64,000 nt of DNA. Source: Candidatus Omnitrophota bacterium (lineage in GTDB: Bacteria > Omnitrophota > Gorgyraeia > JAFGHF01). Below, piece after piece: positions 508-55,653 of this stretch. Location of the stretch: positions 216,209-280,208 of the forward strand of contig CP070837.1 of assembly GCA_020341815.1 (NCBI GenBank). The letters run 5' to 3'. Every line of letters begins with the position of its first letter. Within the stretch, counting starts at the first letter, position 1. Below the pieces are notes generated by a model. It saw only the letters and a program-made list of their open reading frames with translations, did no database searches and was not told where the DNA came from. A program made the position numbers and the translations under genes.

Positions 508-1544
508 ATTTCGCACACGGCGGAAACATTTATGAAGTGAGGAGAAAATACAAGAAAGAAATAATCGACTTCAGCGCCAATATCAACCCCTTAGGCTTAC
601 CCGAAAGAATAAAAGAAAATATCATTAATAATTTTAATAGAATTCTGCATTATCCCGATCTCCAAGCAGAGAAACTCACTGAAAAGCTCGGCAGCTATTG
701 GAAAATAGATAAGGAAAATATTCTGCTTGGTAACGGCTCTATCGAGCTTATTTATCTTATCTTTTCCGCCTTTAAGCCGAAGTCCACTTTTATACCCGTG
801 CCTACATTTTCCGAATATGAACGGGCCGCCAGAAGCGCAAATAGTAAAGTGCAATTCTTACGGCTTAAGGAGAAAGATAATTTCAATCTGCCGGAGAGAA
901 TCGATGCCGGCGGGGCGGATATCTTTTTTCTCTGTAATCCCAATAATCCCACGGGCAATCTCATCCTGCAAAAGCAAAGAGCGGATAATTTGGCTAAATT
1001 GACCGTTATCGATGAGACCTTTATGGATTTCCTGCCTGATCAGGCCGCTCACAGCTTAATCGGTGAAGCGCCGAAAAATAAAAAGATTATTGTCTTGAGG
1101 AGTTTTACCAAGTTCTTTGCCCTTCCCGGCTTAAGAATCGGCTATCTCATAGCGCATAAAGATACTGTCATGAGATTACGGAAATATCAGCTTCCCTGGA
1201 GCGTCAATACCTTTGCTCAAATGGCCGCAGAACTCGCCTTAGATAATGAGGCATATGCGCAAAAGACCAATTGCCTTATAAAAAGAGAAAGAAGCTTTCT
1301 TTTTAGAGAAATTGCAAAAATCAACAGGTTATCCCCGTATCCCTCGCGAGCCAATTTTATCTTGATTAAGATAAATGATAAAGAAATCAACTCTTCTCTA
1401 TTAAAAGAGAGATTGATTGAAAAGGGAATACTCGTAAGGGATTGCGCGAACTTTCGGGGGTTAAGCGGTAAATTTATTCGTATAGCGGTGCGCGCCCGCG
1501 GAGAAAACCAGAGGCTTATTCAGGCCTTGGGGAGGGTAATATGA
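495..1544 (+). CDS. cobD: L-threonine-O-3-phosphate decarboxylase (class I/II aminotransferase fold)
   Basis: 349 aa. N-terminal HGGNIYE motif and PLP-aminotransferase architecture typical of CobD/CobC-type Thr-P decarboxylase. 13-nt overlap with cbiB. Confidence 0.75.
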   Translation: MGYLDFAHGGNIYEVRRKYKKEIIDFSANINPLGLPERIKENIINNFNRILHYPDLQAEKLTEKLGSYWKIDKENILLGNGSIELIYLIFSAFKPKSTFIPVPTFSEYERAARSANSKVQFLRLKEKDNFNLPERIDAGGADIFFLCNPNNPTGNLILQKQRADNLAKLTVIDETFMDFLPDQAAHSLIGEAPKNKKIIVLRSFTKFFALPGLRIGYLIAHKDTVMRLRKYQLPWSVNTFAQMAAELALDNEAYAQKTNCLIKRERSFLFREIAKINRLSPYPSRANFILIKINDKEINSSLLKERLIEKGILVRDCANFRGLSGKFIRIAVRARGENQRLIQALGRVI

Positions 1545-2464
1545 GCAAAATTATTAAAGATTTGAAGAGATTGCTTTGTCAGGCAGTAGAAAGAAATCCC
1601 TATAAAAATTTACTTTTTTCGGGCGGGCTGGATACTTCGATTCTGGCAAGCTTACAGCCCAAATTGACCGGGATTACGATAAGCTTTGGAGATAAGGCCG
1701 AGGACATTCATTATTCAAGCAGCTTATCGCGCCTCTTCAAGATAGAACATTTTCACCGCAAAGTAGATATCGATGAGGCGCAAGAGGCAATTCCCGAAGT
1801 GATAAAAATTCTTAAATCTTTTGATCCGGCCATCCCCAATGATCTGGCGGTCTATTTCGGTCTTCTCAAGGCCGAAGAGCTCAAAATCCGCGAAATAGCC
1901 ACGGGTGATGCCAGTGATGAGTTATTCGGCGGATATTCATTTATGAGAGAAATAGATGATTTGGAAAGTTACATTCGAAGGATTTCTCAAAATTTAAAGT
2001 TCAATTCCAACGACCTCGGCGACTATTTCGGCATTAAAATAATCCAGCCTTTTGTCGATAAGGATGTTTTAGATTTCGCTTTAAAGATACCCAGAGAATT
2101 AAAAATAAGGCAGGGCAGGGGAAAATGGATATTGCGCAAGGCCTTTGAGGGCGTCCTGCCGTATGAGGTCGCCTGGCAGGACAAAAGGCCCCTGGAATAC
2201 GGCTCGGGATTTAATAGAATACGCGAAATTATTTCTAATAAGATATCCGATGAAGAGTTTGCCCAGAGGCCCCCTTTTATGAAGTTTATCAGTAAAGAAC
2301 ACTTCTATTATTACAAAATATATCGGCAAGTAGTGGGAGAAATCCCGAAAGTAAAGGAAGGCCAGGCGAGTTGTCCCGGCTGCGGCGCAGGAATGAAAAA
2401 GGAGAGTTTTCATTGTCAGATTTGCGGCTATGTTATAAATAACACTGAGCGCACTGAACAATAG
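1541..2464 (+). CDS. Asparagine-synthetase-like PP-loop ATP pyrophosphatase (AsnB C-terminal domain only) with C-terminal Cys4 zinc ribbon
   Basis: 307 aa. SGGLDTS PP-loop motif, no glutaminase domain. C-terminus CPGCG..CQICGY. The last 8 codons lie inside the CACTGAR repeat element. Confidence 0.6.
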   Translation: MSKIIKDLKRLLCQAVERNPYKNLLFSGGLDTSILASLQPKLTGITISFGDKAEDIHYSSSLSRLFKIEHFHRKVDIDEAQEAIPEVIKILKSFDPAIPNDLAVYFGLLKAEELKIREIATGDASDELFGGYSFMREIDDLESYIRRISQNLKFNSNDLGDYFGIKIIQPFVDKDVLDFALKIPRELKIRQGRGKWILRKAFEGVLPYEVAWQDKRPLEYGSGFNRIREIISNKISDEEFAQRPPFMKFISKEHFYYYKIYRQVVGEIPKVKEGQASCPGCGAGMKKESFHCQICGYVINNTERTEQ

Positions 2465-2530
2465 CACTGAAACCACTGAAGTTTTTATTCAGTGTTTTCA
2501 GTGTAACAATCTCAGTGACTTCAGTGATAC
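2441..2530 (+). promoter_or_regulatory. CACTGAR heptad-repeat / hairpin element, copy 1
   Basis: Four direct CACTGAR heptads with 2-6-2 nt spacers at 2443, 2452, 2465, 2474. Then three to four inverted TCAGTG copies ending CTTCAGTGATAC, directly upstream of RBS AAGGAGG. Same architecture as 7494..7549. Confidence 0.55.
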
Positions 2531-2546
2531 AAGGAGGTGATAAGAG

Positions 2547-2654
2547 ATGAAAAAAACAAAGGTCAGGAAGAAAAAAGGTATTGTCGCTTTTCGTAAAAAA
2601 TGCAAAGCCAGCGGAACAGGCCTTTCGCATTACATTCTTTTAGATAAAAAATAA
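2547..2654 (+). CDS. Small lysine-rich peptide, 35 aa (MKKTKVRKKKGIVAFRKKCKASGTGLSHYILLDKK); candidate precursor/leader peptide
   Basis: Not in the ORF track because it is shorter than 60 aa. Strong RBS AAGGAGGTGA 8 nt upstream of ATG. Sits between the AsnB-like gene and the radical SAM/SPASM gene. Confidence 0.35.
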   Translation: MKKTKVRKKKGIVAFRKKCKASGTGLSHYILLDKK

Positions 2655-2669
2655 TCGGGAAAATAGGTT

Positions 2670-4064
2670 ATGGAAAATTACGCATCATCGCGAGGGATTT
2701 ATTTCAATACAGGAGGAGGCATTCCGCTTCAACCCGTAGATATCAGACATAAAGATTATATTGGATTGGTATCGGCGGATTCTGCCTTCTGGGCATTAGT
2801 TAAGAAGCATCAGCTTGCTAAGCTCTTGGCAAATCCGTCTTTTTTGCGGAAATACCGCAATAAAGAGAGGGCTTTCCTCAAGGAAATAAATACCTTAAGA
2901 TTTGGCCTGAAGCCTTCGGCAGTTTATTTTAATCCTACCGACCGCTGTAACCTGAACTGTTCTTATTGTTATATTCCGGAACAGTTGCGTCGAGGCGGCA
3001 GGGATATGCCCTCTAAGAAATTATTTGAGGCACTTGAAATTTTAAAGGTTTATTTTGGGGCAACTTTACCTAAAGGCCAAAAGGCGCAGATTATTTTTCA
3101 TGGCGCCGAACCAATGCTTAATAAAGAAGCGATTTTTTCGGCTGTGAATACATTCGCAGGAGATTTTCACTTTGGCATTCAGACAAACGGCACGCTCATG
3201 AGCGATGAAGCAATAGAGTTTCTGACTTCAAGAAAAATAAGCATCGGGCTATCGCTCGACGGCCATATTGCAAGGGTGGCCGATCGCCTGCGCAAGAACT
3301 GGAGCGGCGAGGGCGTTTTTCAGAAAGTAGTAAAGATAATAAAGGCCCTGAGAGGATATGAAAATTTTTCGGTAATTTGCACAGTAACAGGGGAAAATAT
3401 GCTCTCGCTCGTTAAAATAGTCGAGTTCTTGCACAGGATGGAAGTGCCCGTCTGTATGCTGAATCCTGTGCGTTGCACTTTAGCGGCCGCCCGTAAAACT
3501 AAGCCTCAAGACCATCGTTTGGCAAAGAATTATCTAAAGGCACTGGATCGCACCTACGAACTTTACAAGAAAACCGGTCGACGGCTTATAGTAGCGAATT
3601 TTGCCAATGTCCTGATGGGTATTATTGCCCCCGCCGGCCGCAGGCTGATGTGCGACATCTCGCCCTGCGGCGGCGGAAGATGCTTTTTTGCGATTTCAAG
3701 CAATGGAAATTTATTCCCTTGCAGCGAATTCATTGGTCTAAGAAGATTTAAAGGCGGTAATATTTTTAGTGATGATATTAGTAGAGTTTTGCAAACGGAG
3801 CCCTTTAGGCTTGTTACAGAGAGAGATATCGAGAACATTAGGCCTTGCTCTGATTGTGCCATAAGACATTTTTGCGGTTCGCCCTGTCCCGCAGAAGCAT
3901 ATGAGATGAATGGCTCTATGCAGACACCGGGTGCCTTCTGCGAGCTTTACGAGGAACAGGTTCGTTATGCCCTGCGCTTGATTGCCGATGGCAAAGAAGA
4001 CGCATATCTCTGGAATGGATGGAATAAAGGAATCGTTACTACTTTGAAAATAACCGATATTTAG
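2670..4064 (+). CDS. Radical SAM enzyme with C-terminal SPASM domain (anSME/PqqE-like maturase family) and about 95-aa N-terminal extension
   Basis: 464 aa. CNLNCSYCY (CxxxCxxC) at residue 93. C-terminal Cys-rich SPASM region CSDC..C..C. Confidence 0.8.
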   Translation: MENYASSRGIYFNTGGGIPLQPVDIRHKDYIGLVSADSAFWALVKKHQLAKLLANPSFLRKYRNKERAFLKEINTLRFGLKPSAVYFNPTDRCNLNCSYCYIPEQLRRGGRDMPSKKLFEALEILKVYFGATLPKGQKAQIIFHGAEPMLNKEAIFSAVNTFAGDFHFGIQTNGTLMSDEAIEFLTSRKISIGLSLDGHIARVADRLRKNWSGEGVFQKVVKIIKALRGYENFSVICTVTGENMLSLVKIVEFLHRMEVPVCMLNPVRCTLAAARKTKPQDHRLAKNYLKALDRTYELYKKTGRRLIVANFANVLMGIIAPAGRRLMCDISPCGGGRCFFAISSNGNLFPCSEFIGLRRFKGGNIFSDDISRVLQTEPFRLVTERDIENIRPCSDCAIRHFCGSPCPAEAYEMNGSMQTPGAFCELYEEQVRYALRLIADGKEDAYLWNGWNKGIVTTLKITDI

Positions 4065-6651: not shown

Positions 6652-7539
6652 ATGAATATACTGGAAGTTAAAGATTTAAGATGCGGGTATGATTGCGAGC
6701 GGGGAGCGGTGATAAAAGACATCTCTTTTTCTGTGAGGGAAGGAGAGTTCTTAGGTGTGATTGGCCCAAACGGGGCGGGAAAAACCACGCTCTTTCGGGC
6801 CGTAAGCGGGGCATTGAGGCCCTGGGAAGGAAATGTCTTTTATAAAGATAAAGAGATTTGCCGTATTGGTCCTCGTGATTTTGCCTCGCAGGTAGCGGTT
6901 ATGCCCCAGATGTTAGAGATAACTTTTTCCTTTTCGGTGGAGGAGTTTGTATTGATGGGACGCTTTCCGCACAGAACTAGATTTTCCGCTTTGCGAGAAA
7001 AAGACCTTGCGATATTGGAGGAGGTTTTAAGGCTAACCGATACCTTTTCTCTGCGCAGGCGCAAGATTCTTGAGCTCTCAGGGGGCGAGAGACAAAGAGT
7101 GCTTCTGGCCCAGGCTTTTGCCCAGGAACCGCAGCTTTTACTCCTGGATGAGCCCACCTTGCATCTGGATATTTCCCATCAGGTGCAAATTTTGGATTTG
7201 GTCAGGAGATTGAATCAAGAGAAAAGCCTGACCGTAATTATGGTCTTGCATGACTTGAATCTGGCCAGCAGTTATTGCGACCACCTGCTTTTACTTAAAG
7301 AGGGAAAGGTATTTAAGCAAGGCTCAGGGAGTGAGGTGCTTACTTATCAAAATATCGAAGAGGTCTATAAGACAGTGGTTGTGGTGAAGCAAAACCCCAT
7401 CAGCCATAAGCCGTATGTATTGTTAGTATCCGAGGAAGAACAAATGATGAGAAGGAAATTGAATAATACGGAGAGGAGGTGGGAAGAAAAAGAGACACTG
7501 AGAACACTGAGTAATAACACTGAAAGCACTGAAGAATAA
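6652..7539 (+). CDS. ABC transporter ATP-binding protein (BtuD/FecE-like) with repeat-encoded C-terminal tail
   Basis: Walker A GPNGAGKTT, signature LSGGERQR, Walker B LLLDEP. The last about 25 aa (NNTERRWEEKETLRTLSNNTESTEE) are encoded by CACTGAR copy 2. Confidence 0.8.
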   Translation: MNILEVKDLRCGYDCERGAVIKDISFSVREGEFLGVIGPNGAGKTTLFRAVSGALRPWEGNVFYKDKEICRIGPRDFASQVAVMPQMLEITFSFSVEEFVLMGRFPHRTRFSALREKDLAILEEVLRLTDTFSLRRRKILELSGGERQRVLLAQAFAQEPQLLLLDEPTLHLDISHQVQILDLVRRLNQEKSLTVIMVLHDLNLASSYCDHLLLLKEGKVFKQGSGSEVLTYQNIEEVYKTVVVVKQNPISHKPYVLLVSEEEQMMRRKLNNTERRWEEKETLRTLSNNTESTEE

Positions 7540-7549
7540 CTTCAGTGAT
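7494..7549 (+). promoter_or_regulatory. CACTGAR heptad-repeat / hairpin element, copy 2
   Basis: Four CACTGAR heptads at 7496, 7505, 7518, 7527 with the same 2-6-2 spacing as copy 1. Perfect hairpin CACTGAAG-AATAA-CTTCAGTG (7527..7547) encloses the TAA stop. RBS AAAGGAGA follows. Confidence 0.55.
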
Positions 7550-7566
7550 AAGAAAGGAGAATTCTA

Positions 7567-7983
7567 ATGCGCAGAATAGCCGGAATTATTATAGCGGTTG
7601 CCTTATGTCTTTCATCGATAGTTGCCTGGGCCGATAATGAAAACAGCAAAGGTATTATTGTAGAAATTGACTATGGAAGGCTGCGCCCATCTAGAACAAT
7701 AGAGGCCCCTTTGGCAAAAGACAGGACAATTCTTGAAGTGTTACAGAGCGTTGCTACGGTAGAAACACATCCTGTGGGCAAATATGTTATGGTTACTTCC
7801 ATTGACGGCGTCAAGGGTAAGCGCGGAGAGATGGCCTGGTATTATACGATAGATGGAAAATCAGCAGACAAAATAGCCTATTCAAAAGTCGCAGATAGCG
7901 CCAAACATATAAAATGGGTATATAAGAAGGATGTCTGCTCGCCAAAGGTGGATTGCTTAAATACAGCGAAAAAAGAAGATTGA
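7567..7983 (+). CDS. Small secreted protein (signal peptide, 138 aa), function unknown; possible corrinoid-binding accessory protein given context
   Basis: N-terminal signal peptide IIIAVALCLSSIVAWA. Lies between the btuD-like gene and the B12 riboswitch/btuB. The functional assignment is contextual inference only. Confidence 0.4.
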   Translation: MRRIAGIIIAVALCLSSIVAWADNENSKGIIVEIDYGRLRPSRTIEAPLAKDRTILEVLQSVATVETHPVGKYVMVTSIDGVKGKRGEMAWYYTIDGKSADKIAYSKVADSAKHIKWVYKKDVCSPKVDCLNTAKKED

Positions 7984-25131: not shown

Positions 25132-25470
25132 ATGTATTACGTTTACCTTCTGATTAGCACAAAGGATAATAATCAATATATCGGATTCACTGAAGATATC
25201 GATAAAAGACTAAAAGAACATAATGCTGGTAAAGTAGTATCTACAAAGAATAGAAGACCATTAAAGTTAATTTATTTTGAGGCTTATCTAGATAAAAGAG
25301 ATGCTCAAGGTAGAGAGCAATTTCTTAAAAGTGGAGCAGGTAAGAGATTTTTACGAAAACAATTGAAACACCATTTGGAAACAAGTAATCGCGGGGTGGA
25401 GCAGCCCGGTAGCTCGCAAGGCTCAAAATGGACACAAAGCTCAAAGCCGACATTGCGGAGTCAGCTGTAG
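25132..25470 (+). CDS. GIY-YIG nuclease superfamily protein, YhbQ/UPF0213-like; C-terminal about 30 aa read through tRNA exon 1
   Basis: YYVYLLISTKDNNQYIGFTEDIDKRLKEHNAGK matches the YhbQ-type GIY-YIG signature. The ORF continues through the tRNA 5' exon (..NRGVEQPGSS..) to a stop at 25470. Confidence 0.65.
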   Translation: MYYVYLLISTKDNNQYIGFTEDIDKRLKEHNAGKVVSTKNRRPLKLIYFEAYLDKRDAQGREQFLKSGAGKRFLRKQLKHHLETSNRGVEQPGSSQGSKWTQSSKPTLRSQL

Positions 25471-26060
25471 TAACTAAACTTCTGGAAAGAGGTTTTAGAG
25501 TACTGCGGCCTGTGGGAGATCGACTTTCCTACGATTTAGGCGTCGATCTCGACGGAAAGTTCATTCGCATCCAGGTGAAGAGTGCTTGGTTCAACAAGAA
25601 AGGCAGTTGCTATACTGTTGATGTGCGTCGAACCAAGACAAATCGCCGACATATGTTGAGACAACGTTATGATGCAAATGACTTTGATTTCGCAATTATC
25701 TACATCGCTGATTTGAATGTGTTCTACGTAATGCCTGTATCTGCATTCTCTCGTTACGGAAGTAGCGTAACATTTGTAGAATCAGATAAAAGGCAGCGTA
25801 AACCAAAATCAGCGAATTATAGAGAGCAATGGGATTTGTTGTTCAATGGGTCCCTCAGGCGGCAACGTCTGATGGAAAACCTGTCAAATTCGGTGGAGCC
25901 CTCGACATTAGATCAAGGTAATACCGAGCCAAGTCTCCCGATGGCCATCGGGGGAAAGGTGTAGAGACTAGGTGGCAGGAATCCTGAGGAATCAGGATTA
26001 AGGTATAGTCCAGACTACAAATGCCGTAAGTTCGGCAGCAGTGAAAACTGTAGTAGTAAG
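25424..26060 (+). mobile_element. Group I intron (IC3/Azoarcus-like core) in the tRNA-fMet anticodon loop, between U33 and C34
   Basis: Core-like motifs: GUCAAAUUCGG (25882..25892); GGUGUAGAGACUAGGUGGCAG (P7/P3'); hairpin AAUCCUGAGGAAUCAGGAUU (P8-like); GGUAUAGUCC (P7 3' strand); P9-like hairpins. The last intron nucleotide is G and the last exon nucleotide is U. Confidence 0.6.
25428..25964 (+). CDS. Intron-encoded ORF, 178 aa, possible PD-(D/E)xK-like endonuclease
   Basis: Starts 5 nt after the 5' splice site and ends inside the intron core. Loose GVDLDGKF..IRIQVKS D..(E/Q)xK-like pattern. The nuclease assignment is weak. Confidence 0.4.
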   Translation: MDTKLKADIAESAVVTKLLERGFRVLRPVGDRLSYDLGVDLDGKFIRIQVKSAWFNKKGSCYTVDVRRTKTNRRHMLRQRYDANDFDFAIIYIADLNVFYVMPVSAFSRYGSSVTFVESDKRQRKPKSANYREQWDLLFNGSLRRQRLMENLSNSVEPSTLDQGNTEPSLPMAIGGKV

Positions 26061-26111
26061 CATAACCTTGAGGTCGGCCGTTCGAATCGGCCCCCCGCTA
26101 CCATTTAAGAG

Positions 26112-47193: not shown

Positions 47194-48051
47194 GTGAAAA
47201 AAGAGTCGATGCATTGCGAGATACTGGAGGCGGGTAAGGTCAGGTGTCTTCTCTGTCCTCATGTTTGTCTGCTTAAGAAGGGCGAAGTGGGCCGCTGCGG
47301 CGTAAGGCAGAATGAGTATGGCCGGCTCTATTCTTTAATCTACGGCGAGGTCACGTCTTGTGCCTTAGACCCCATTGAGAAAAAGCCCCTTTATCATTTC
47401 CATCCGGGTGAACATATTCTTTCTTTAGGCACAAAGGGATGTAATCTCAAGTGTCCCTGGTGCCAGAACTGGGCGATTTCTCAAGAGTATGCAAGTTGTC
47501 CCACAGAAAAGTTAAGCCCTCAGGAGGCAGTTAGCCGGGCGAAGGAATTGAACTCCTTTGGCATCGCCTATACCTATAATGAACCGTTTATCTGGTATGA
47601 GTTTGTCTATGATACCGCACTTCTTGGGCACAAGGAAGGCCTGAAGAATGTCCTGGTGACCAACGGATATGTTAATCAGAAGCCCCTGGAGGAAATTATT
47701 TCACTTATCGATGCAATGAATATCGATGTTAAGTCAATGGACGATAATTTTTATAAGAAATACTGCGACGGAAGGCTCTCGCCCGTATTGCGCACGGCAG
47801 AGTTTTCGGCTGCGAGGTGCCACGTCGAAATTACCAATTTGATTATCCCCACACTTAATGACAGCCGGGAGAATTTCCAAAAATTGACGGACTGGGTGGC
47901 CGAGAAGTTAGGAAAGGACACCCCGCTTCACTTTTCCCGTTATTTTCCCGCCTATAAAATGGATATCCCGCCTACGCCGATAGAGACGCTGAAGGCGGCC
48001 GAAGAAATTGCCAGGAAGAAATTGCGTTATGTATATCTGGGTAATACTTAA
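47194..48051 (+). CDS. AmmeMemoRadiSam-system radical SAM enzyme (PflA-like activase family)
   Basis: 285 aa, GTG start within a GGGGTGAA motif. CNLKCPWCQN radical SAM motif. N-terminal C..C..C..C cluster typical of this family. Confidence 0.7.
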   Translation: MKKESMHCEILEAGKVRCLLCPHVCLLKKGEVGRCGVRQNEYGRLYSLIYGEVTSCALDPIEKKPLYHFHPGEHILSLGTKGCNLKCPWCQNWAISQEYASCPTEKLSPQEAVSRAKELNSFGIAYTYNEPFIWYEFVYDTALLGHKEGLKNVLVTNGYVNQKPLEEIISLIDAMNIDVKSMDDNFYKKYCDGRLSPVLRTAEFSAARCHVEITNLIIPTLNDSRENFQKLTDWVAEKLGKDTPLHFSRYFPAYKMDIPPTPIETLKAAEEIARKKLRYVYLGNT

Positions 48052-49670
48052 GGTAGGGATCGATTTTTAAGTTCCCCGAGATTGCTTAATAAGTTTGCTT
48101 GCCTTTTCAAATCTTCCAGCCAGTTGTTGAGAAAAACCATCTGTTTTCTTAAAAGGATTCTTTGACTGAATGTTTCCTTTTCCCGGGTAAATGTCTCTTC
48201 CTCAAAGGGAGCAATATCTATCAGGCTCAAAACGCAATACCCCTTGGAGATACTGAATAAACCGCTTATTTCACCGGGTTTAAGCCCGAAGGCAGCTTGC
48301 GCAAACTCGGCGCTGTCACCGATACCGGGAATATAATCTATTCTGGCAAATCTTTCGGTTTCCTCAACTGCCAGGGAGAGGTTTTCCGCTGCTTTTGAAA
48401 AACTCATCTTTTCTTCCTGCATCGATTTTTTGATTTGTTTAAAGTACTCTTCAGCTTTATCTTTAGCCAGCTGCCGGGATTTTTCTTTAATCACCGCCTG
48501 CTCAACTTCCTTTTCGGCTTCTTCTAAAGCGGGAATGTAGCTTTCCTTCTTTTCCTTTAGTTTGATGATGAAAAAGCCCTGGGGAGTCTCTATTACATCG
48601 CTTACCTCGCCTACCTTCATAGAAAAGGCGGCATTGAGCAGCTCGTAAGAAAGCCCTACCTCCGGAATAACGTCCTGCGGGCCGAAAAATCCGGTTTCTT
48701 TAATGCTAAGCTGATTCTTCTCTGCCGTTTCTTTGAAGAGCGCGGAGTTATTTGCGATTTCATCGGCTATCTGCCAGGCTTTATCTTCCTGAAGCGCGTA
48801 GGCCTTCTCTTGTCTCAAGACTCCTTTGATCTGCGCCTTTACTTCTTCTAAGGGCGTTGTAATTTCTTTATCTTTTTTATCTTTTCGGGTGAAATCTTCG
48901 ATGTGTTCCTGGTAATAACTGCCGATTTCCTCTTCGGTGGCCTCTATTCCAGAGAGGGCCTCTTCAAGATAAAAAGCCAGATATTGCAGATTGACCTGGT
49001 CGGGTTTTTTGAATTCGTCTTTGTGACTTTGATAATGTTCTTTTTTCTCTTCGTAGGAAGGATGGACTTCTTCTGTGAATTGCTGCGGTTCAATCAATAT
49101 ATAGAAGACCCTGGCCTTTTCGTTTTCCTTCCTGTATTCTTCTTTTATTTCCTCTTCACTAAGAGAGACTTCATTGATGACAGTCTCTCTTAGCTTATTA
49201 ATCTTGAGCGTTCCTCTTATCTGTTCTTCGAAATCGCGCGAGTTTGTGCGGAATACATAATCTAAGAGCAGATTATATCTGTCCCGGCTGAAGCGCCCGT
49301 CCTTTTGAAAAGAAGGCATCTTCCCGATAAAATCAATTACTTCGCGGTCTGAGACCTTTATCTTTTCCTTTTTCGCATGATAAAGCAGGATAAGCCTATC
49401 CCAGGCGGTCTCTTCCAGGTTAAGGGCTTTAGCCACCTGGTTAAAGTTGTCCCCGTGAATAAGTATGGCCTGGTTCCGGCAGGCCAGATACGAGGCCTCA
49501 TATTGGCTGAAGGAAACTTTCCTGCCGAAAATCTCACCCGCGTATTTAGGCAGGCCCTTTTGCCTTACGGAACTGCCGCTTCCCCATAAGACAAAGGCAG
49601 GGATAATCAATAGAGCCAAAACCCACATAATCTTTTTGACGTTTTCTCTTTTGCGCAAGAACTTGAGCAT
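48048..49670 (-). CDS. Periplasmic chaperone / peptidyl-prolyl isomerase, PpiD/SurA-like (parvulin domain)
   Basis: 540 aa. N-terminal TM anchor, chaperone domain, PpiC-type PPIase (..SDVIETPQGFFIIKL..). The only confident minus-strand gene. Confidence 0.75.
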   Translation of the reverse strand: MLKFLRKRENVKKIMWVLALLIIPAFVLWGSGSSVRQKGLPKYAGEIFGRKVSFSQYEASYLACRNQAILIHGDNFNQVAKALNLEETAWDRLILLYHAKKEKIKVSDREVIDFIGKMPSFQKDGRFSRDRYNLLLDYVFRTNSRDFEEQIRGTLKINKLRETVINEVSLSEEEIKEEYRKENEKARVFYILIEPQQFTEEVHPSYEEKKEHYQSHKDEFKKPDQVNLQYLAFYLEEALSGIEATEEEIGSYYQEHIEDFTRKDKKDKEITTPLEEVKAQIKGVLRQEKAYALQEDKAWQIADEIANNSALFKETAEKNQLSIKETGFFGPQDVIPEVGLSYELLNAAFSMKVGEVSDVIETPQGFFIIKLKEKKESYIPALEEAEKEVEQAVIKEKSRQLAKDKAEEYFKQIKKSMQEEKMSFSKAAENLSLAVEETERFARIDYIPGIGDSAEFAQAAFGLKPGEISGLFSISKGYCVLSLIDIAPFEEETFTREKETFSQRILLRKQMVFLNNWLEDLKRQANLLSNLGELKNRSLP

Positions 49671-55148: not shown

Positions 55149-55574
55149 ATGGAAATAACAGAGGTGAGAATTTTTTTACGAGATAATCCAGCGACGAAAC
55201 TCAGGGCTTACGCCACAATTACCTTTGATAACGCTTTTGTAGTCAGAAATATAAAGGTCATTGAGGGCAATAAAGGTTTATTTGTCGCAATGCCTTCCCG
55301 GAGAATTGAAGACCCCTGTCCCAAGTGCGGGGCCAAAAATTCCCTAAGAAGCAAGTATTGCAATCAATGTGCAAGTCTTCTTCCGCAAAAAGAAAGCCCG
55401 ATATCGTCGGAAAATGAAAGAATTTTTGCTGGCGAAGATAAAACTGATCGCCGCTCCGAACACAGAGATATCGCTCATCCTATTAATATGGAGACCAGGG
55501 AATACATTCAGAATAAAATTTTAGAGACTTATGATTTGGAGAAGGCCCAGAGGTTGCAACACAAAGAAGTATAA
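55149..55574 (+). CDS. spoVG: SpoVG family protein with about 45-aa zinc-ribbon insertion
   Basis: MEITEVRIFLRDNP..AYATITFDNAFVVRNIKVIEGNKGLFVAMPSRR then insertion EDPCPKCGAKNSLRSKYCNQCASLL.., then the conserved HRDIAHPIN. Confidence 0.8.
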   Translation: MEITEVRIFLRDNPATKLRAYATITFDNAFVVRNIKVIEGNKGLFVAMPSRRIEDPCPKCGAKNSLRSKYCNQCASLLPQKESPISSENERIFAGEDKTDRRSEHRDIAHPINMETREYIQNKILETYDLEKAQRLQHKEV

Positions 55575-55580
55575 TAACGT

Positions 55581-55653
55581 TGCCCGGTGGTGAAATGGGT
55601 ATTCACACCGGCCTTTGGAGCCGAGGTTCCTGGTTCGAATCCAGGCCGGGCAA
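55581..55653 (+). tRNA. tRNA-Gln(TTG)
   Basis: Acceptor TGCCCGG/CCGGGCA with U1-A72. Anticodon loop CTTTGGA (anticodon TTG). T arm CCTGG-TTCGAAT-CCAGG. No encoded CCA. Confidence 0.8.

Follow-up and report, generated by a model that had tools for sequence, protein, structure and literature searches.

The 64,000-nucleotide (nt) stretch of Candidatus Omnitrophota contig CP070837.1 analysed in the present study (hereafter, the window) carries a corrinoid (vitamin-B12) salvage and uptake operon, and two copies of an element built from CACTGAR heptads lie inside this operon (Table 1). Each copy precedes a functional sub-block, copy 1 that beginning with cbpA and cbpB and copy 2 that of the DUF4430 gene, btuB and tonB. 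An earlier, sequence-only reading of this DNA had described both copies and proposed that they act as a riboregulatory, translational-coupling ladder of alternative helices or, equally, as a multimeric protein-binding site. All of its descriptive statements proved correct, and its interpretation is partly supported, the protein-binding array being favoured over the riboregulator.

The window contained 15 CACTGAR heptads, compared with 7.1 ± 2.8 in shuffled sequences, and 13 of them, all perfect, fell into two clusters (2443–2526 and 7496–7547). With up to two mismatches allowed, no further or degenerate copy of the pair CACTGA-N3-CACTGA was found elsewhere in the window, suggesting that the two clusters are not due to chance. 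In both copies the four direct heptads start 9, 13 and 9 nt apart, confirming the identical spacing reported earlier, and the three extra inverted units claimed for copy 1 were also found (four inverted units versus one in copy 2). The repeat unit proper is a 22-nt module with two hexamers 9 nt apart, and copy 1 consists of two such modules followed by two inverted ones. Both copies end in a terminal inverted arm, and CTTCAGTGATA terminates copy 1 (2518–2528) as well as copy 2 (7539–7549). In a hand alignment of the 41-nt direct arms, all 24 hexamer bases were identical between the copies and seven of the 17 other positions differed (hypergeometric P ≈ 9 × 10−4), indicating constraint on the hexamers and not on the whole element. 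By geometric calculation the direct units, at 0, 9, 22 and 31 bp, all face roughly one side of the helix. A tandem-repeat structure of the Tandem Repeats Finder (TRF) type was absent, the CACTGAR units being separated by 2 and 6 nt.

Table 1. The two heptad-array copies, the adjoining gene ends and the genes of the B12 operon, in operon order, with positions in the window
Feature	Position	Strand	Composition or remark
Copy 1, whole element	2438–2530	.	AATAA lead, two direct 22-nt units, 9-nt centre, two inverted units, ATAC tail
Copy 1, direct arm	2443–2480	+	CACTGAG 2443; CACTGAA 2452, 2465 and 2474
Copy 1, inverted arm	2488–2526	-	CACTGAR at 2488–2494, 2497–2503, 2511–2517 and 2520–2526; spacing 9/14/9
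Stop of AsnB-like gene	2462–2464	+	TAG, supplied by and inside copy 1; tail INNTERTEQ in place of ancestral LDWRxx
Shine–Dalgarno sequence and cbpA start	2531–2549	+	AAGGAGGTGA and ATG; AAGGAGG 2531–2537, ATG 2547; outside copy 1
Copy 2, whole element	7494–7549	.	two direct 22-nt units and one inverted heptad (CTTCAGTGATA)
Copy 2, direct arm	7496–7533	+	CACTGAG 7496 and 7505; CACTGAA 7518 and 7527
Copy 2, lone inverted heptad	7541–7547	-	pairs with 7527–7534 (8-bp stem, 5-nt loop)
Stop of btuD	7537–7539	+	TAA in copy 2 hairpin loop; BtuD of 295 amino acids here, 283 in L001
Shine–Dalgarno sequence and DUF4430-gene start	7553–7569	+	AAAGGAGA and ATG; GGAG 7556–7559, ATG 7567; outside copy 2; conserved with L001
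cobD			
AsnB-like amidotransferase gene	1541–2464		
cbpA	2547–2654		precursor peptide, TIGR04164
cbpB			radical-SAM maturase
Dph6-like gene			ATP pyrophosphatase
btuF			
btuC			
btuD	6652–7539		
DUF4430 gene	7567–7983		
btuB			
tonB			

The predicted RNA fold of copy 1 was one long interrupted hairpin (−38.1 kcal/mol, z = −5.1), and that of copy 2 was an 8-bp hairpin only (−13.7 kcal/mol, z = −2.2), formed as CACTGAAG/AATAA/CTTCAGTG with the btuD stop codon in its loop, as had been claimed. A cis-acting RNA device in the operon mRNA might be read from these folds, in which the heptads would pair in alternative registers beside the downstream ribosome-binding site (RBS) and so couple or tune translation of cbpA and the DUF4430 gene, or in which the hairpin would serve as an RNase III site or a stabiliser between cistrons. 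The very stable hairpin of copy 1 and the stop codon in the loop of copy 2 are consistent with such a device. However, the downstream Shine–Dalgarno sequences (SDs), which together with a start codon do follow each copy as the sequence-only reading stated, were unpaired in both the minimum-free-energy and the centroid folds, and are thus not sequestered. In agreement with the earlier view that the element is not a known motif, Rfam at gathering score matched only a group I intron and a tRNA in the window, both away from the elements, and at E ≤ 10 the best matches at the element were eukaryotic microRNA and long non-coding RNA models far under threshold. A terminator scan flagged only the inner 7-bp stem of copy 1 (2474–2494; three GC pairs, tail TTTTCAGTGT) and nothing at copy 2; an intrinsic terminator was rejected, there being no G+C-rich stem directly followed by a U-tract. 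A simple sigma-70 promoter scan gave nothing meaningful at either copy.

Both copies were absent from four distinct orthologous loci (L001, L173/L174, L175 and L176). Locus L001, whose AsnB-like protein is 91% identical, is without both elements and also without cbpA and cbpB. At the site of copy 2, the window and L001 share about 90% flank identity as far as GGGAAGAAAAA and from AAGAAAGGAGAA onwards, and 37 unrelated nt of L001 are replaced in the window by the 58-nt element. At the site of copy 1, no heptads occur in L175 (69% identical), although this locus contains the AsnB-like gene together with cbpA and cbpB; its AsnB-like protein ends in ...GYVLDWRNS, followed by the stop, and the SD ahead of its cbpA is that of the window. 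The NNTE-type tails that the sequence-only reading assigned to the AsnB-like protein and the ABC ATPase are indeed encoded by the element (...GYVINNTERTEQ and ...ETLRTLSNNTESTEE, each followed by the stop). They are not conserved in orthologues, however: 24 AsnB-like orthologues mostly end in ...CGYVLDWRxx and none carries an NNTE tail, so that the tails are by-products of the element. The absence of the element from all sampled orthologous operons, which retain the same SDs, argues further against an RNA device, and a translational-coupling or RBS-masking hairpin was rejected on the unpaired SDs and on this absence from the four loci.

Several observations concern the same B12 loci. The cbpA/cbpB cassette (window 2547–4064) is variable across them: L001 and L173 lack it, L175 has it in the position seen in the window, and L176 has a radical-SAM/SPASM gene, the presumed cbpB, flanked by cobS and cobD. 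In the Omnitrophota protein P0107 the AsnB-like open reading frame (ORF) reads through into cbpA. A recombination site of the cbpAB cassette was rejected, since its right junction is without heptads and the cassette occurs in L175 and L176 without them. The 37-nt spacer of L001 (14251–14287) holds CTCTGATTTAATGAATTTTAA, with a 13/22 match to one 22-nt unit, which may be a decayed or primordial unit, or a chance match in AT-rich sequence.

The phasing of the four direct sites on roughly one helix face, and the location of both copies in one operon ahead of its sub-blocks, would also agree with an operator array for a host transcription factor or nucleoid protein controlling the B12 operon or the cbpAB cassette, for example as a roadblock or internal promoter. 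However, the orthologous B12 loci are without arrays, L175 with its cbpA and cbpB among them, and identical designs occur at unrelated junctions, namely between pgsA and der, between an FTCD_C-domain gene and a tetrahydrofolate dehydrogenase-cyclohydrolase gene, and upstream of gpsA. The element furthermore lies too close to the start codons for a promoter to fit in between, none was called there, and no regulator gene is nearby. We regard such an operator as very improbable; a host regulator site for the B12 genes is unlikely, and a control element specific to B12 genes or to cbpA was rejected on the heptad-free orthologous loci. The heptad also appears to agree with none of the established operator consensuses compared, namely LytTR 9-mers, ARG boxes, Fur hexamers, Pho boxes, parS and NrdR boxes.

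Pattern scans indicated that the window copies belong to a wider family. A scan for CACTGAR-N2-CACTGAR-N5–7-CACTGA found 55 loci in species-representative genomes, with multiple three-heptad matches per metagenome-assembled genome in Anaerolineales, Chloroflexales, Ignavibacterium and Flavobacterium, and a scan for CACTGA-N3-CACTGA-N6–9-CACTGA-N3-CACTGA found 113 metagenome stretches; the latter pattern has 24 fixed bases and a chance expectation of about 0.03 matches per 10^12 bases. In viral contigs the four-heptad pattern gave two matches, at least one of them within a coding region. Overall, more than 100 arrays of the paired-heptad design were found in Omnitrophota and other uncultured bacteria. 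The sequence-only reading had allowed for a chance duplication, with only these two copies in existence and orthologous loci lacking them; the orthologous loci do lack the element, but with more than 100 occurrences of the design in public data the two copies are not alone.

Intergenic members with the exact architecture of the window copies, two direct pairs followed by inverted pairs, were found in L057, L094 (Candidatus Omnitrophica bacterium 4484_213), L148, L169, L109 and L047. Although the searches placed no constraint on the inverted arms, these too show the 9-nt pair spacing, suggesting that it is genuine, and the pair-to-pair spacing ranges from 12 to 16 nt. The hexamer of the family is of the type CRCNGA, with pairs 9 nt apart and at least two pairs per arm, in the window and also in L002, L146, L067, L185 and L183; the direct block precedes the inverted block in both window copies, so that CACNGA points towards the centre on both strands. 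A GC-rich subfamily occupies 12 different sites with GAAC...GTTC ends, a covarying central stem and no common flank among the 12 copies. The density of the element was two per 64 kb in the window and one or two per 12–21 kb in related Omnitrophota loci.

Within the family, the stop of the upstream ORF usually falls among the first units, and 5–40 nt separate the last unit from the following start codon. In a crude test of flanking ORFs, palindromic members with both flanks called lay between two forward genes in seven cases and two reverse genes in five, and never between convergent or divergent genes, whereas the direct-only arrays were divided into four forward and four reverse cases. The restriction of palindromes to spaces from stop codon to next start between co-directional genes would suit an RNA device, as would the next ATG lying 5–8 nt past the last unit in Omnitrophota that lack SDs, and compensatory changes in the central stem of the GC-rich subfamily (CCCGCC/GGCGGG, CCACCC/GGGTGG and CCCCC/GGGGG). 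On the other hand, the 3-nt spacers in opposite arms are mostly non-complementary, TCTGTG variants in some 3′ arms would place U·U mismatches in every helix, a helix alone gives no reason for one sequence common to all units, and the direct-only arrays show no orientation bias to the flanking genes. An orientation bias that would have spoken for a reading of CACUGA at the RNA level was thus not found (seven versus five for palindromes and four versus four for direct arrays).

Some arrays of the same unit are coding. In L063, L076, L096, L108, L114 and L123 the CACTGA 9-nt unit encodes in-frame acidic (N/D/S)-T-E linkers, and in L095 an L-K-rich N-terminus; the sole difference between coding and non-coding arrays is whether the spacings, as multiples of three, keep the reading frame. 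Contigs L069 and L102, and likewise L062 and L099, share one flank and one element arm, and L069 and L102 diverge inside the other arm and beyond, which could reflect recombination between copies or assembly-graph branching at the repeat.

All-against-all clustering of the ORFs near the arrays returned a sole recurrent small family, PF13366 PDDEXK_3/TIGR04256 GxxExxY; no REP-associated tyrosine transposase (RAYT; REP, repetitive extragenic palindrome) recurred among the small neighbours in this clustering, which included no search aimed at RAYT. GxxExxY genes were bracketed by arrays, with direct units upstream and inverted units downstream, at a minimum of 12 loci in several phyla, and all of the gene-flanking cases counted for family polarity had the order direct block, gene, inverted block. 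Upstream and downstream units of the CACTGA type numbered eight and three in L002 (CACTGAR and TCAGTG), four and three in L146, four and two in L067, and two and four in L140; in L063, L076 and L123 the genes were flanked by CGCAGAT and ATCTGCG, and the gene of L061 was also array-bracketed. Different GxxExxY paralogues on one contig (L063) bear different heptads, and the heptad sequence differs between lineages as well. In 12 GxxExxY proteins G24, G26, E29, Y32, D68, E78 and K80 were invariant, the D...ExK catalytic residues thus being retained. No GxxExxY relatives were found in viral contigs or phage genomes, and the family had no match in a PDB sequence search or in the PADLOC defence library.

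GxxExxY genes on plasmids and chromids of cultured bacteria, nine plasmid genes in total, served as an independent sample. The spacer after radA in Bacteroides finegoldii holds a gene with CACAGAG, CGCAGAG and CACGGAG upstream and three CTCTGTG units downstream, phased at 9 nt. An array-flanked gene lies between ade and manC in Bernardetia, and between fabD and fabG in Sphingomonas, where CGCGAAG-type units are upstream and CTTCGCG downstream. In Gemmatirosa, CGCAGAG and CGCGGAT palindromes adjoin the gene, and in Treponema a single inverted 9-mer was found.

Two junctions with the element allowed forms to be compared between relatives. Between pgsA and der it is present in three Omnitrophota lineages in different forms, comprising four direct and two inverted units in L177/L178, one degenerate direct and three inverted units in L179/L180, whose Der protein is 96% identical, and four to six inverted units in L181, with a Der protein only 70% identical. 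Perfect hexamers are thus retained, while whole units are gained or lost and the hairpin potential is lost. Upstream of lepA, L177 has arrays plus a PDDEXK_3 pseudogene, and in L179 only about 35 nt separate the same arrays; the gene-containing and gene-less forms occupy one orthologous site and are thus allelic. In the same two genomes the spacer after mnmE holds insertion-sequence fragments (rve_3, HTH_32) in L177 (16205–17175) and a GIY-YIG ORF of 93 amino acids in L179 (16180–16461), and small selfish genes seem to land frequently at intergenic junctions in such genomes.

The unit turnover and hairpin loss between pgsA and der, where L179 and L181 hold perfect units without the hairpin, together with the non-complementary spacers, argue against a purely structural role in RNA and for a reader of the units themselves. 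To judge from the sequences compared, selection appears to be on the units and not on the helix. We consider an RNA device unlikely, and do not retain the ladder of mutually exclusive helices proposed in the sequence-only reading; the multimeric protein-binding site that it offered as the other possibility fits better, in that the same kind of arrays flank genes of a nuclease fold in inverted orientation in many bacteria.

The same junctions bear on whether the heptads are read by anything today. The arrays could be functionless repeat DNA, made by slippage as spaced arrays or left as decaying scars after deletion of a GxxExxY cassette. Heptanucleotide tandem arrays are described as common in bacteria (Mrazek, 2007, as cited in MacGregor, 2015; PMC4679880), and the long contiguous CACTGAN arrays found in L015, L043 and L053, the whole-unit insertions and deletions between relatives with 96%-identical Der proteins, and the GxxExxY pseudogene of L177 beside the gene-less allele of L179 would all accord with this. 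However, slippage would copy spacers along with units, whereas only 10 of 17 spacer positions and all 24 hexamer positions agree between the window copies; perfect units persist between pgsA and der even where Der proteins are only 70% identical; and an inverted arm cannot come from slippage. Slippage or scarring thus explains the turnover of units but not perfect hexamers beside diverged spacers, and we hold it to be doubtful.

We propose, at odds slightly better than even (a probability of about 0.55), that the window copies are two gene-less members of a heptad-array inverted-repeat family whose heptads are probably recognition arrays of the GxxExxY nuclease family. The building block is a hexamer or heptamer of the type C-R-C-N-G-A-N (CACTGAR in the window), set in pairs 9 bp apart, with the pairs 12–16 bp from each other. 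In the full-length form, a GxxExxY gene of about 125 codons (PF13366/TIGR04256) stands exactly at the short centre of the gene-less form. We predict that the nuclease-fold protein encoded there most likely recognises the heptads in double-stranded DNA; the unit as a whole may then act as a selfish intergenic element of spacers running from stop codon to RBS, and the short palindromes would be non-autonomous or gene-deleted derivatives. Parallels may be seen in REPs and REPINs (REP doublets forming hairpins) with RAYT, in miniature inverted-repeat transposable elements (MITEs) with their transposase, and in a homing-endonuclease gene with its split target. On this reading both window copies arose after the split from the closest sampled relative, and each fills the interval that begins where the upstream ORF ends and closes just short of the SD of the following gene. 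In the AsnB-like gene and in btuD alike, they overwrote the final codons together with the stop and supply new stops with short junk tails, leaving the downstream SDs intact. As a side effect, the polycistronic mRNA would gain a stable hairpin from copy 1 and a small one from copy 2. The binding of protein to the heptads, the mobility of the element and its mechanism, and any effect on the mRNA are inferred. The element is probably not a dedicated regulator of the B12 operon.

Several findings weigh against this proposal. No target-site duplication is visible on comparing filled with empty sites, and the copies replace 20–37 nt where a simple insertion would not, a pattern that matches no known chemistry of transposition; a MITE of the classical kind, with target-site duplication, was rejected for the same reason, the sites showing replacement and no duplicated flank. 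About 30% of the pattern-matched arrays are coding linkers of the type (X-T-E/D)n, so that the heptad alone is not diagnostic, and the density of the element in the loci examined appears to lie far under that of classical REPs. The 64-kb window contains no GxxExxY gene. Three of the nine plasmid GxxExxY genes deviate, with no arrays in L186 and L189 (Persicobacter and Prevotella) or related units in direct orientation on both sides in L184 (Fusobacteria). Furthermore, most metagenome examples were found through CACTGA arrays, which biases the frequency of the association upward and leaves only the downstream arms and the non-CACTGA cases as independent evidence.

The heptad arrays can be compared with several known systems. 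REPs, bacterial interspersed mosaic elements (BIMEs) and REPINs are short intergenic palindromic repeats, often inverted doublets with long hairpins, and their cognate RAYT (Y1 transposase) gene is flanked by inverted repeats. Like these, the heptad arrays show no target-site duplication, vary between strains, lie within or at the ends of operons, and have a partner gene that is itself bracketed by repeats in inverted orientation. They differ in that the partner fold is PD-(D/E)XK and not HUH/Y1, each arm is an array of direct heptads and not a single imperfect palindrome, the copy density is apparently 10–100 times lower, and a GTAG-type guide tetranucleotide is lacking. With MITEs the arrays share a length of 50–110 nt, terminal inverted arms, the existence of gene-less versions of a longer element, and presence/absence polymorphism between close relatives; unlike MITEs, they lack target-site duplications and replace 20–37 nt, copies in one genome share only the units and not the spacers, and there is no DDE transposase.

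Homing-endonuclease genes are free-standing or intron-borne, and I-Ssp6803I of a cyanobacterial tRNA-fMet intron is a PD-(D/E)XK example. They resemble the present system in that a small nuclease gene splits a palindromic or pseudo-palindromic site into half-sites, that gene-containing and gene-less alleles exist at one locus, and that a PD-(D/E)XK precedent exists, the window itself carrying an intron-borne PDDEXK_5 ORF. However, homing makes no new target sites, whereas gene-less arrays sit where relatives have none, and a multi-unit array of 50–90 bp contrasts with a unique sequence of 14–40 bp. The omega repressor of plasmid pSM19035, a ribbon-helix-helix protein, binds operator arrays of WATCACW heptads in promoters of plasmid maintenance genes. 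Its 7-bp units also occur in direct and inverted orientation; small dimers bind cooperatively to at least two units, and unit number matters more than orientation. The omega heptads are contiguous and promoter-located, with a ribbon-helix-helix binder where a nuclease-fold protein is proposed here, and have no sequence similarity to the window heptads.

The nearest literature is the description of TAACTGA direct repeats, of unknown function, in Beggiatoaceae, Cyanobacteria and Bacteroidetes (MacGregor, 2015; PMC4679880). These are likewise heptamers with an ACTGA core, occur in sets of two to six with a patchy spread across phyla, and are mostly intergenic, ending a few nt before start codons and, in some cases, running into the 3′ end of the preceding ORF. 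They differ from the window arrays in being contiguous with a 7-nt period, nearly always direct (one inverted case among 170 sets) and strongly oriented towards the downstream gene, whereas the window arrays have units 9 and 12–16 nt apart in direct and inverted blocks. A contiguous tandem repeat of the TAACTGA type was rejected for the window, whose spaced CACTGAR units share only the ACTGA core. Arrays of the window type are linked to GxxExxY genes, and PMC4679880 mentions neither nucleases nor transposases. We found no published account of an association between heptad arrays and GxxExxY, and the papers that name the family do not describe the gene flanks; the heptad-array family and its nuclease system are apparently undescribed.

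Other features of the window were also noted. At 25390–26104 an initiator-type tRNA gene appears to be split in the anticodon loop by a group I intron of about 640 nt (5′ half CGCGGGGTGGAGCAGCCCGGTAGCTCGCAAGGCTCA; 3′ half ending in ...GGTCGGCCGTTCGAATCGGCCCCCCGCTACCA; Rfam RF00028 match at 25827–26036; no ARAGORN tRNA call), and this intron carries the PDDEXK_5 endonuclease ORF (25428–25964). We take it to resemble the cyanobacterial tRNA-fMet intron that encodes I-Ssp6803I. The ORF just ahead of the split tRNA (25150–25390) reads by eye as a small GIY-YIG-type protein (...YIGFTEDIDKRLKEHNAGK...). A SpoVG homologue with a zinc-ribbon insertion (55149–55574; Pfam SpoVG and Zn_Ribbon_1, residues 57–74) is directly followed by a tRNA gene (55581–55653). 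Nearly all genes of the window are on the + strand, with a SurA-like gene (48048–49670, −) as a clear exception, and the cumulative GC skew climbs monotonically over the whole window (1–64000).

For the operon itself, the two copies mean that the AsnB-like enzyme lost the conserved ...LDWR end after its CxxC pair, that BtuD gained 12 residues, and that a strong hairpin was placed in the mRNA ahead of the cbpA peptide gene; the NNTE-type tails are best handled as junk in annotation. More broadly, the results tie an apparently uncharacterised multi-phylum protein family (GxxExxY, PDDEXK_3) to a specific and easily spotted DNA architecture, and they yield a directly testable hypothesis, namely that the GxxExxY protein binds or cuts the heptad arrays that flank its gene. 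They also offer a candidate counterpart of the REP–RAYT relationship on a different nuclease fold, and a possible explanation for the spaced heptamer arrays that lie exactly between genes in many uncultured lineages. As a tentative extension, which we put at somewhat less than even odds, CRCNGA-type arrays and GxxExxY (PF13366/TIGR04256) proteins may together form a previously unrecognised class of selfish elements across at least Omnitrophota, Bacteroidota, Gemmatimonadota, Pseudomonadota and Spirochaetota, in which a small PD-(D/E)XK nuclease would recognise the multi-unit arrays that bracket the gene encoding it, populate stop-to-RBS spacers in operons, and leave or spread gene-less palindromes. 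If true, this would provide the first function for the large family of ‘GxxExxY proteins’ and could account in part for the long-noted overabundance of heptamer repeats in genomes of bacteria, the TAACTGA arrays perhaps among them.

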